DNA from: a virus | Taxonomy: Duplodnaviria > Caudoviricetes | Length of the DNA stretch: 51,682 bases | Direction: 5' to 3' (one strand) | Virus record (IMG/VR): IMGVR_UViG_3300020044_007591 | Span: 1-51,682 of that record | Shown: piece by piece, positions 27,329-29,839 of the stretch | How positions within the stretch are numbered: the stretch's first letter is position 1 | How the letters are laid out: the number at the start of each line of letters is the position of its first letter | The notes under the pieces: generated by a model | Told to the model about the DNA's origin: nothing | Seen by the model: the letters and a program-made list of their open reading frames with translations, nothing else | Database searches by the model: none | Made by a program: the position numbers and the translations under genes

Positions 27329-27931
27329 TTACTTCTTGCCCATGGTCATGCCACCTTTTTTCATCATCTTGCTGTCAGGCATCATTTTACCATCAGGCAT
27401 TTTATGCATACCGACTTTGCCGCCCTTCTTATAAGGCACATTGCCGGTCTTTGTAGCCATAGTAGGCTTGCCGTTCATCTCACCGGGGTTCTTATTGCCC
27501 TTGATGCCCAAGGTGCCTTCAGGCTTCAGCATACCCTTGCCGCCCTCTACAAAACCGCCCTTTTTCATAGCGCTAGGCTGAATCATAGGAGCCATAGGCG
27601 CCACAGGCATAGCGCGGCGCATGGGGGCCTTAACCATGCGGCTTTGCATGATCTCGTCTTTCTTCATGCTAGGCGTTTCCATCGACTCATGTTTCATCAT
27701 GGCGCGGCGGCTGGGATATTTCTCGCCAGTAGCAGGCTCTTTCATGCCGCCCTTGGCGTAATACCCACCGCTAGCCATCTTGGTCATTTTCTGCCCGACC
27801 AGAGACTTTTCAACAGCCTTAGATTTGGCCATCTGAACGTCCTGACCAGCCTTTGCAGACCCGCCATAGCTGTAGTTGCAAGGCTTTGCACTAAAGTCAA
27901 AATCTTTGACATACATTGGACCTTTTGCCAT
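27329..27931 (-). CDS. Met/Lys-rich basic low-complexity protein with seven xxxGG motifs
   Basis: ATG 27931 (MAKGPMY) after AAGGGGA; contains YSYGG, MASGG, YAKGG, MKKGG, FVEGG, YKKGG, MKKGG. Confidence 0.7.
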   Translation of the reverse strand: MAKGPMYVKDFDFSAKPCNYSYGGSAKAGQDVQMAKSKAVEKSLVGQKMTKMASGGYYAKGGMKEPATGEKYPSRRAMMKHESMETPSMKKDEIMQSRMVKAPMRRAMPVAPMAPMIQPSAMKKGGFVEGGKGMLKPEGTLGIKGNKNPGEMNGKPTMATKTGNVPYKKGGKVGMHKMPDGKMMPDSKMMKKGGMTMGKK

Positions 27932-27942
27932 TTCCCGTCCCC

Positions 27943-28353
27943 TTAAGCCGTTGCGTAGGTTTTGATGCACTCGATGACGATAGTATACATATCGCCAGAT
28001 GATGCGTCAGATGTCGTGAAGGCCACATTTCCTGTTTTCCCCGCGCCAGCGTTGTTGGTCAACCCGCCAAAGTCAGAGAAATCCATGGAATAACTTACGT
28101 TCTGCGGGATCATCCACGTAAGCAAGTCAGTTGTCGCATCCCAGAGAATGCGGACCTCCATGCCATGGGTGTTAGCCCAGATCCGATTGATCTTTACGCC
28201 ATTACATGCAAAACCTGCGGCACTAGCTGCAAGACCGGAAACAATTATCTTATTGACAGCGGTTTCGCCCGTTCCATCAGAAATGTTCGTGAATTTCTGA
28301 ATGACAAGACGCTCACCGTCGAGCAGCGTCTGTGTGGCTACAGCATCAGCCAT
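27943..28353 (-). CDS. Virion structural protein
   Basis: 136 aa, MADAV..Q...DG.......TN.SDGTGE; AGGAGG RBS; downstream of the capsid gene. Confidence 0.65.
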   Translation of the reverse strand: MADAVATQTLLDGERLVIQKFTNISDGTGETAVNKIIVSGLAASAAGFACNGVKINRIWANTHGMEVRILWDATTDLLTWMIPQNVSYSMDFSDFGGLTNNAGAGKTGNVAFTTSDASSGDMYTIVIECIKTYATA

Positions 28354-28365
28354 GTCTACCTCCTG

Positions 28366-28390
28366 TGAAAATGAGGGCCGAAGCCCCCAT
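28366..28390 (-). terminator. UUCG hairpin / weak terminator
   Basis: Minus strand ATGGGGGC-TTCG-GCCCTCAT-TTTC. Confidence 0.55.
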
Positions 28391-28394
28391 TAAA

Positions 28395-28790
28395 TTAAGC
28401 AATCGTCACGCCGCGAGAGCCGACAACCGCCCAACCAGTGGCAGTGTAGATCATGTAGACAGCATCTCCGACAGCCGTGAACGTGATGGTGGAGTACCCA
28501 ATCTTCGTCGTCGGAGTCAAAACGGCGCTACCGCCATCAACCGTATGAACGATGATCTTGACCTGTCCAGCGGTGCCATTGGCAAGCGTCAAAGCCTGCG
28601 AAGCGCCCGTCGTGGTCAACTGCGTGAGCATATCTGTGATGTTTACAGCGCCCGCACCAGAGAGGCTCTGGCTGGTGGCAAACACATCGCCAGTAAGATT
28701 GCCGGTCACATTGCCGGTGATGTTGCCAGTCACGGCACCAATGAAGCCGTTGGTCGAGGTAACTGGACCAGAAAAAGTAGTAGAAGCCAT
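28395..28790 (-). CDS. Head decoration / head fibre protein
   Basis: MASTTFSGPV.S.NGF start and GN(I/V/L)TG repeats; follows the capsid gene. Confidence 0.6.
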   Translation of the reverse strand: MASTTFSGPVTSTNGFIGAVTGNITGNVTGNLTGDVFATSQSLSGAGAVNITDMLTQLTTTGASQALTLANGTAGQVKIIVHTVDGGSAVLTPTTKIGYSTITFTAVGDAVYMIYTATGWAVVGSRGVTIA

Positions 28791-28797
28791 TTTTAGA

Positions 28798-28873
28798 TCC
28801 TCACATGCGAGTTAAGCGCATCAGTCTGCATGTCGTCAGCCGGAACTGTCTAATACGCTGAATAAAATCCGGT
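28798..28873 (-). ncRNA. Pseudoknotted structured RNA downstream of the capsid gene (candidate Mu-gpT-DE-like motif)
   Basis: Three interleaved helices: 28868-72/28840-44, 28850-59/28815-24 and 28828-33/28803-08. Confidence 0.6.
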
Positions 28874-28877
28874 ATTT

Positions 28878-28920
28878 ATATTCCCCGCCCATAGGGGGAC
28901 AGACTACAGGCGGGGAACAG
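28878..28920 (-). other. Long GC-rich hairpin immediately after the capsid stop codon
   Basis: TTCCCCGCC (28881-89) pairs with GGCGGGGAA (28909-17) and extends with G-U pairs; no strong U-tract. Confidence 0.6.
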
Positions 28921-28924
28921 TTAA

Positions 28925-29839
28925 TTAGACGCCGGGTGTGCCGAAGAGGCCACGAGGATCAGTCCAACCAACGGTGTAACGCTCGGTTGCCTTGTAGCGC
29001 ATGGAGTCGGTTTCGAAATCGCCTTCCATGCTCTTTTCAAGACCACGACGCATCAAGAGCTTCATGCCTTCTGGCGCATCAGTCTGCACCCACCAAGCGG
29101 TGGTTGAGGTGATACGAGAAAGGTTAGCTTGACCCTTAGCCAACAGGCCCATCGACTTGATCGGGTTGATGTCGTTGTCAGCTGTGCCAGTACGAAGAAC
29201 GCTCTTCAGCAGAACTTCGGCTTGGAACACGTTTGACGGACCTGACACGATCTGAGTCGGGTTCAGACGGATACGCTTGCCGTTGTTGTCAACAGCGTTG
29301 CGGATCTGAACCAGCATCTGCTCAAGCGATGTCTGAGACAATGCAGCAGCAGTTGCGAGCTGGTTGCTGAAAGTGCCGCTGACAATCGGGTGGTTCGTAG
29401 CAATCAGAGACACGCCGTCACCGCCGACATACGAGCTATTAAAAGCACGATTTAGGACGTTAGCGGAGAGAGTCTCCTTTGTTTCGATCAGCGACTGAGC
29501 CAAGTGCTTGGCATAGGTCTGGCCGATACGAATGTGATCGCCGTCCTCAACGAGAACTTTGGTCAGCGCGAAGGCAAGACCATAGACCTTGTAGAGGTAA
29601 CGCTGCAAGAACAGCACGCCGCCGGACTGGTAGCTGACTGCCATGCCATCGGGGAGTTCCGGCGCAGCACCAAAGCCGTACAAGACGGGCTCTTCATGGT
29701 AATTGCGGGGAATGCCCTTCTGCTCACGGAAGACCATCTTCCATTCATCAGAACGCTGATCATAAACACCATCAAAAACTTCGTTCAGGATGGGCTCAAC
29801 TACCGACCGGAAGTCGGTACTACGCATAGGAGTAGCCAT
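28925..29839 (-). CDS. Major capsid protein (Mu gpT-like, HK97 fold)
   Basis: 304 aa; GFG.A....G, ED......Y...LA.S...TKE..A.VLN.AF, GGDG..L....HP and ERY..GW.DPR...G motifs. Confidence 0.85.
   Translation of the reverse strand: MATPMRSTDFRSVVEPILNEVFDGVYDQRSDEWKMVFREQKGIPRNYHEEPVLYGFGAAPELPDGMAVSYQSGGVLFLQRYLYKVYGLAFALTKVLVEDGDHIRIGQTYAKHLAQSLIETKETLSANVLNRAFNSSYVGGDGVSLIATNHPIVSGTFSNQLATAAALSQTSLEQMLVQIRNAVDNNGKRIRLNPTQIVSGPSNVFQAEVLLKSVLRTGTADNDINPIKSMGLLAKGQANLSRITSTTAWWVQTDAPEGMKLLMRRGLEKSMEGDFETDSMRYKATERYTVGWTDPRGLFGTPGV

Follow-up and report, generated by a model that had tools for sequence, protein, structure and literature searches.

Small pseudoknotted RNAs that sequester the Shine–Dalgarno sequence (SD) are familiar from riboswitches such as preQ1-II/III and SAM-II/V. 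Pseudoknots also serve as operators at the ribosome-binding site (RBS), as in the E. coli alpha operon (S4, a double pseudoknot), rpsO (S15) and the T4 gene 32 leader, where they exert autogenous translational control. Structured leaders controlling phage structural genes are, to our knowledge, barely known beyond a few classic cases. One described phage motif, Mu-gpT-DE (RF03012, a model of 53 positions), is found downstream of gpT-like major capsid genes. Fremin et al. 2023 (PMC10690425) mined IMG/VR viral contigs for conserved structures beside phage genes and reported 10,006 unnamed candidate RNAs, five of them upstream of a major capsid protein family. As far as its main text goes, that study names no motif in the context considered here, and its capsid-linked candidates lie upstream of the capsid gene, not downstream. 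The element that we describe may be among the 10,006 candidates, which are given in the supplementary tables of that study.

This element is a 75-nt RNA motif directly upstream of the gene that follows the capsid gene in the window, the whole stretch of DNA analysed. The window spans all 51,682 bp of an IMG/VR virus record that is complete and carries terminal repeats. Like preQ1-II/III and SAM-II/V, it is a small pseudoknotted leader with SD bases in its 3'-most helix and conserved unpaired junction bases. Unlike them, it is built on a three-way junction with two hairpin-loop-to-strand helices, matches no Rfam riboswitch, and stands in a phage late structural gene context rather than in metabolism. 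As in the S4, S15 and gene 32 operators, the pseudoknots of the element include or adjoin the RBS of the putatively regulated gene, as expected of an autogenous operator, and they are double, as in S4; unlike these operators, the element is kept across much wider protein divergence than the neighbouring genes. It is a new architecture of pseudoknotted leader at the RBS that is not in Rfam 15.

Layout of the element and its comparative support

The gene upstream encodes a gpT-like major capsid protein (Pfam Phage_capsid_4, E 7.3e-10; Mu-like_gpT, E 2.9e-06), and its PHROG matches are major head protein families. The spacer between the capsid ORF and the next ORF is exactly 28791–28924 (Table 1). 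It begins, on the coding strand, with a terminator-like stem after the capsid stop codon. In the window this hairpin has no U-run (its tail is AAUAUAAAU), and a terminator scan did not call it as an intrinsic terminator. The element follows. A sequence-only reading of this stretch had quoted the minus-strand string after the long hairpin, and that string is present letter for letter.

Table 1. Coordinates of the element, its parts and the flanking features in the window
Feature	Position	Strand	Basis or remark
Major capsid protein gene (gpT-like), 304 aa	28925-29839	minus	Pfam and PHROG
Post-capsid hairpin, 16 bp	28879-28919	minus	MFE and centroid fold
Whole RNA motif, 75 nt, P1a to SD end	28798-28872	minus	covariance model R1
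P1a CCGGA	28868-28872	minus	pairs with P1b in the P4 loop (pseudoknot 1)
P2a AGCGUAUUAG	28850-28859	minus	pairs with P2b
ACAG	28846-28849	minus	A28849 is J2/4; CAG 28846-28848 is the P4 5' strand
P4 hairpin CAG/CUG	28837-28848	minus	CAG 28846-28848, loop 28840-28845, CUG 28837-28839
P4 loop UUCCGG	28840-28845	minus	holds P1b UCCGG 28840-28844
CUGAC and G	28835-28839 and 28834	minus	string quoted in the sequence-only reading
Junction J4/3 ACG	28834-28836	minus	conserved unpaired core with J2/4 and J3/2
P3a ACAUGC	28828-28833	minus	pairs with P3b (pseudoknot 2)
Junction J3/2 AGA	28825-28827	minus	conserved unpaired core
P2b CUGAUGCGCU	28815-28824	minus	pairs with P2a
UAAC-UC	28809-28814	minus	between P2b and P3b
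P5 hairpin CUC/GAG	28800-28811	minus	CUC 28809-28811, loop P3b, GAG 28800-28802
P3b GCAUGU	28803-28808	minus	is the P5 loop
Shine–Dalgarno GAGGA	28798-28802	minus	first three bases are P5b
AUG of downstream gene	28788-28790	minus	7 nt after the SD
Downstream gene, 131 aa	28395-28790	minus	ORF

Three helices had been proposed from the window alone: P1 (5 bp), P2 (10 bp with two G-U pairs) and P3 (6 bp), interleaved in the order a-b-a'-c-b'-c', with P3 adjoining a GAGGA that ends 7 nt before the AUG. The coordinates agree with every part of this scheme, and compensatory changes in relatives bear out the helices. Alignment revealed two further 3-bp hairpin stems, P4 and P5, which that scheme lacked. 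Because P4 closes around P1b and P5 around P3b, P1 and P3 are 6-nt hairpin loops docking on upstream single strands. P2, P4 and P3 converge on a three-way junction, with P2 closing the domain, and an unpaired, A/U-rich spacer separates the SD from the AUG. The fold of the single sequence is modest (z = −2.04 over 151 nt; 7 of 200 shuffles were as stable), and much of that signal comes from the upstream hairpin.

Comparative evidence was drawn from a first set of 80 IMG/VR loci whose capsids are 84–97% identical to that of the window (the best 80 of 597 confirmed). By a simple pattern search, 48 of these loci have the element, as does the window. After five exact duplicates were dropped, 44 distinct sequences were aligned with MAFFT, blind to structure. 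In this alignment 96.3% of 957 cells pair, against 17–45% in controls slid by 1–3 columns; 16 of 22 pairs changed on both sides, and the covariation score was 0.616, against 0.219 for shuffles. None of 500 shuffles reached 0.616.

A covariance model, R1, was then built from P2, P4 and P5 only. It scores 87.3 bits over 28788–28882, the sole match at E ≤ 1 in the 51.7-kb genome, and it added two of the 32 loci that the pattern had missed (L064 and L026), bringing the capsid-related loci with the motif to 50 of 80. Among 55 distinct model-aligned sequences, 96.7% of cells pair (19–42% in slid controls) and double changes occur in 19 of 22 pairs. P2 pairs in 93.9% of cells, with double changes in all 10 pairs. 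P3 pairs in 98.5%, with double changes in all six; since P3 lies outside R1, the alignment gives it no advantage. P4 pairs in 100% of cells, its middle pair being AU in 35 sequences, CG in 13, GC in 6 and UA in 1, and its outer pair GC in 54 and UA in 1. P5 pairs in 98.8%, with an inner pair of CG (35), UA (15), UG (3) or AU (1). L026 and L064 show compensatory changes even in closing pairs that are otherwise fixed, and RNAalifold recovered P2, P4 and P5.

G-U cells number 41 across the 55 sequences against 12 A-C cells, eight of the latter at a doubtful outermost pair. This imbalance means that the strand that folds is the sense strand, as RNA, and it agrees with the preference for RNA over a DNA palindrome that had been voiced on the G-U pairs of the window.

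Of the unpaired junction bases, J2/4 is A in 55 of 55 sequences, J4/3 is ACG in 51 (ACU in three, GCG in one) and J3/2 is AGA in 55. All seven bases are near-invariant, none being shared by fewer than 51 of the 55 sequences. Every one of the 55 has an NAGG, SD bases fall within P5b in all 55 canonical sequences, and the gap from P5b to the AUG is 6–11 nt. The element thus has a conserved aptamer-like fold with invariant unpaired bases, as expected of a riboswitch. Judged by this comparison of sequences, it is a real and strongly supported structured RNA family.

P1 could not be tested by alignment tools because the position of P1a shifts between sequences, and shuffles within single sequences were by themselves not significant for P1. 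Among 130 distinct relatives, 126 have a best complementary match of at least 5 bp between the P4 loop and the strand upstream of it, and P1a and P1b form at least 15 different complementary types. These include CCGGA/UCCGG, CUGGG/CCCAG, CCGAG/CUCGG, CCCGA/UCGGG, CUAGGU/GCCUAG, UCAGGC/GCCUGA and GGGACGAA/UUUGUCCC. When loops were swapped between sequences, loops scored 5.41 with their own partner and 4.74 with a swapped one (Wilcoxon p 2.6e-4, on rows that are not independent). The case for P1 rests on the variety of complementary types. Two loci, L034 and L048, have a short loop on P4 and no P1.

P1a may also take part in a second state. A crude search found a local hairpin of at least 4 bp between P1a and a segment overlapping the distal part of P2a in 97 of the 130 sequences, and L129 has a change in P1a to which both partners, that of P1 and that of the local hairpin, are adjusted. 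This local hairpin is absent from the window.

Distribution and the tie to the downstream gene

A second set was obtained by searching IMG/VR for the exact core pattern, which gave at least 120 stretches. All 80 of the listed stretches examined match R1 (56–92 bits). A capsid gene lies upstream in 77, the other three having too little upstream sequence, and in 75 of the 77 the capsid is only 33–60% identical to that of the window. The RNA core is therefore better conserved than the capsid protein. By a simple parse, an ORF starting Mxx-T-T/H-F/Y-x-G-P (TTFSGP-type) follows the motif in 75 of the 80; in the other five the parse took the wrong AUG.

The first set also contains 30 motif-less loci. 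No TTFSGP-type gene lies within the flank in 24, and one is cut. In the remaining five a related gene (MSQTT[FW]SGPLASGD) stands behind a plain strong SD, which indicates that the element is dispensable for such genes. At no fewer than eight first-set loci (L035, L036, L044, L061, L064, L066, L068 and L071) an extra ORF separates the capsid gene from the motif, and the motif still adjoins the next AUG. The element is tied to the downstream gene, not to the capsid gene.

Like Mu-gpT-DE, the element lies downstream of a gpT-like major capsid gene. Its tie to the next gene separates it from that motif, which the sequence-only reading had mentioned while declining to equate the two. That caution was justified: the best RF03012 match in the genome, compared by the score of the Rfam covariance model and not by consensus, has 12.9 bits (E 0.093) against a cut-off of 49, and it lies elsewhere, at 28351–28377 (minus). 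The place of this match is between the 131-aa ORF and a 136-aa ORF, outside the element. The end of the 136-aa ORF is overlapped by 28 nt by a 213-aa ORF (27329–27970, minus), which is Lys/Met/Gly-rich, of low complexity and without a Pfam or PHROG family.

The extra ORFs in the spacer resemble nuclease genes. Pfam identified GIY-YIG or Endonuclease_7 in six of seven inserts scanned, three of the seven coming from motif-less loci (GIY-YIG in L002 and L017; Endonuclease_7 in L035, L058, L064 and L068). By eye, inserts are also seen in L018, L024, L030, L042, L075, L076, L036, L037, L039, L061, L066, L071 and L063. The short stretch from the capsid gene to its neighbour is a hot spot for the insertion of free-standing nuclease genes of homing type; at motif-bearing loci they are placed between the post-capsid hairpin and the motif, and in L035 the longest nuclease ORF extends through most of the motif.

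A signal at the DNA level might be a site for recombination or homing where an exchangeable module begins, a promoter, or a structure in single-stranded DNA. Such a signal would suit both the insertion of these genes right beside the motif and a downstream gene whose 5' end is conserved while its 3' parts are exchanged. We nevertheless consider it very improbable, since compensatory changes in five helices, long-range pseudoknots among them, are unexpected for a site in duplex DNA, and the G-U to A-C asymmetry distinguishes the strands. The motif also occurs once per genome, hence it is no repeated promoter, and the scan called no sigma-70-like site at the element. A TATAAAT noticed by eye before P1a was likewise set aside: no site was called there and the sequence is not kept in relatives.

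The same scan found no promoter or terminator of the element's own around it, which weighs against an RNA that is freed from the mRNA to act in trans or in packaging. The loop–strand pairings could in principle form between molecules, and nothing else speaks for such an RNA; the element is always at the RBS, on the coding strand and at a set distance from the AUG. The packaging role that had been suggested for it found no support, and we regard this whole class of explanation as scarcely credible.

A constitutive element that senses nothing deserves more weight. It might be a 5' stabiliser, a block to RNase E or to a 5'–3' exonuclease, or a holder of the RBS context. The element comes directly after the post-capsid hairpin. 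Of the distinct stretches upstream in relatives, 20 of 54 and 53 of 75 combine a hairpin with a T-run by a crude rule, and a hairpin and T-run upstream would make the element the first structure on read-through RNA. The unpaired, A/U-rich spacer before the AUG suits a context holder as well. Yet a stabiliser needs neither invariant unpaired junction bases nor an identical core in phages whose capsids have diverged as far as those of the second set, and the competing P1a hairpin hints at two states. We therefore hold this explanation to be unlikely.

The motif is frequent in uncultivated phages, which are most probably from freshwater by their run and metagenome-assembled genome (MAG) labels. 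A blastn search of the motif against 50,697 GenBank phage records found no canonical carrier, and R1 did not match Caulobacter phage RW, MW202545 or Roseobacter phage CRP-902. Eleven of 12 pattern matches in GTDB genomes were true motifs by R1; the twelfth, in Streptomyces, had no R1 match. The eleven (among L085–L096) lie on short MAG contigs whose labels name nine unrelated bacterial lineages (Nitrosomonadales, Crocinitomicaceae, Chloroflexota, Nanopelagicales and others), and these are probably mis-binned phage contigs. Core 14–16-mers of the motif occur in none of the full texts searched, and the Minerva preprint holds nothing on the motif. The motif core of relatives is represented in Logan contigs of four metatranscriptome libraries, and one such contig bridges capsid gene, motif and downstream gene. 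Contigs do not give ends, strand or level, and since DNA carry-over is possible we take this cover as no more than a weak hint.

The downstream protein of 131 aa has a conserved N-terminus of about 20 aa (MASTTFSGPVTSTNGFIG), a Gly/Thr-rich repeat and a C-terminal beta-sandwich. ORFs after the motif (L001–L080 and L097–L176) share the N-terminus and have unrelated C-terminal parts, with lengths of 69–239 aa where complete. The protein thus has the look of a constant anchor that carries an exchangeable distal module. We found no Pfam or PHROG family for it. It has 3777 homologues at E ≤ 0.001, and the best 120 of these are named only 'hypothetical protein' or are evidently misannotated. An AlphaFold2 model (pLDDT 90.3) has an extended N-terminal stretch of 39 residues and a beta-sandwich. 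Foldseek matched this model to tailspike N-terminal modules (24qj, E 2.6e-4; CBA120 TSP4), to the phage Pa223 capsid spike at rank 14 and to T4 gp9/gp10, and in BFVD to uncharacterised, minor-tail and tail-fibre proteins. As modelled, the protein resembles a small fibre/spike-like module on a conserved anchor. The name 'decoration' gene given to it in the sequence-only reading was not borne out. The fold is like that of small fibre or spike modules, and capsid decoration is plausible from the position of the gene. What stood of that reading is an RNA-level double pseudoknot ending at the RBS, upheld by covariation.

Diverged and reduced leaders

A third set consisted of 80 loci (L217–L296) with relatives of a gene of Roseobacter phage CRP-902 whose product has the same N-terminus. 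Six of the 80 carry the canonical element (at least 73 bits), and 21 carry diverged forms that are still significant to R1 (18–32 bits). One of the diverged leaders (L234) keeps all helices on other junction bases (ACU, UUA). Three (L265, L279 and L232) are without P5, and a script check showed that their P3b (CUAGG) contains the SD bases AGG. In L231 and L280, P5 is GUG/CAC and, by eye, the SD lies directly 3' of P5b, not inside it. Leaders of the L224 type keep P1, P2 and P4 and have no clear P3 partner. In this type (L224, L229, L230, L241, L245, L251, L252 and L259) the AGA junction is also kept; the third strand reads AAGCCA, AACCCA or UUGCCA with no complementary P3b downstream, and a UCC..GGA pairing near the SD is possible.

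A further form, type B, occurs at 25 of the 80 loci (15 distinct), in marine relatives. It runs C(C)CUGAC, a hairpin of variable sequence, GAC, 7–9 nt, GAC and AGGAG; as an example, CCUGAC, hairpin, GAC, NNUAGCCNN, GAC, AGGAG. By eye, the cultured phage CRP-902 has a type B leader (L084, 2690–2765). The CCU that precedes the first GAC is able to pair with the SD; being invariant, it makes covariation uninformative. We found no pairing partner for a conserved UAGCC stretch in type B leaders. Common to all leader forms are three GAC words around the junction and an SD in, or touching, the last helix.

The behaviour of the reduced forms bears on a catalytic reading, namely that the element is a new small self-cleaving ribozyme or an RNase processing site that cuts the polycistronic late transcript after the capsid gene and ahead of its neighbour, leaving a structured 5' end on the downstream mRNA. 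Several small ribozyme classes look alike in compactness, and many occur in phages. A compact double pseudoknot of about 75 nt with seven near-invariant unpaired junction bases would fit among them, and the site between two genes of one operon would suit processing. The reduced variants, however, keep the link to the SD while losing P3 or P5, and in 55 of 55 sequences the fold keeps its 3' end on the SD, at a fixed distance from the AUG, which catalysis does not require.

Rfam adds nothing to the catalytic reading either. The Infernal check that had been proposed was run, and at gathering score no Rfam 15 family was found in the window or in 20 related loci, and RF03012 was unmatched at the element. 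A search of 301 nt (28700–29000) at E ≤ 10 gave three chance matches only (E 2.3–6.9; a CRISPR repeat and two snoRNAs). No Rfam 15 ribozyme family matched in the window, the 301-nt stretch or the 20 related loci. CUGACGA resembles the hammerhead core; the hammerhead was rejected because the U of CUGACGA and the A of GACAG change together as a base pair. In all, we rate cleavage at the element as quite unlikely.

A leader peptide starting from the AUG in P3a was also considered and rejected, as it is not conserved among 128 distinct sequences: its frame stops before the main AUG in 53 (after 5–15 codons), runs past it in 60 and has no stop within 150 nt in 11, and four sequences have no AUG there.

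A proposed role in translation

We favour translational control of the downstream gene, since the element follows that gene and several of its architectures place the SD in or beside a helix. On balance, the element probably acts in cis to control the translation of a modular fibre/spike-like protein, through SD occlusion. The 75-nt stretch would form a structured leader on the mRNA of the gene after the capsid gene, with the P5 loop docking on the single strand of the junction (P3) and the P4 loop on the upstream strand (P1). Because P5b is the 5' half of the SD, formation of P3 and P5 hides part of the RBS. The folded state would lower initiation on the gene for the fibre/spike-like protein and would leave the upstream capsid gene unaffected, and variants would hide the SD in P3 or P2 instead of P5. 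The near-invariant junction bases (A, ACG and AGA, that is, the three GAC words and their neighbours) could be the site for a ligand or a protein, a factor acting in trans to stabilise or open the fold. Our inference is that translation is repressed or tuned by the fold, which such a factor would stabilise or open; between a small ligand and a protein as the trigger, our judgement is split about evenly.

The recurrence of SD occlusion by different routes (P5b, P3b and the CCU of type B) counts for control of translation. Against occlusion stand the length of P5, only 3 bp, the GA of the SD, which stays free, and the two diverged leaders with the SD outside P5 (L231 and L280). Around the SD, no conserved alternative 'ON' structure was seen. 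Structure at an RBS could also be coincidence, because phage genomes are compact.

A more specific proposal, which we put forward tentatively and hold to be possible at best, is a new sensing RNA on a pseudo-threefold 'triple-GAC' three-way junction: either a riboswitch for a small molecule within a phage late operon, or an operator read by the fibre protein, which is probably trimeric, or by the capsid protein. The co-conservation of the motif with the N-terminal ~20 aa, as a sign of protein binding, is only suggestive, because the N-terminal peptide also occurs without the motif. If a triple-GAC operator were at work, unassembled fibre or capsid protein would shut off its own synthesis, and if the triple-GAC device is real, the GAC-hairpin-GAC-GAC-SD leaders of the marine relatives and of CRP-902 would be its reduced forms.

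As a five-helix double pseudoknot with an invariant junction, the element is a good candidate for a new class of riboswitch, ribozyme or operator. R1 provides a ready covariance model for it, and the type B leader of CRP-902 offers a cultured system for the reduced form. The element gives a handle on how phages dose a hypervariable, probably surface-exposed protein.
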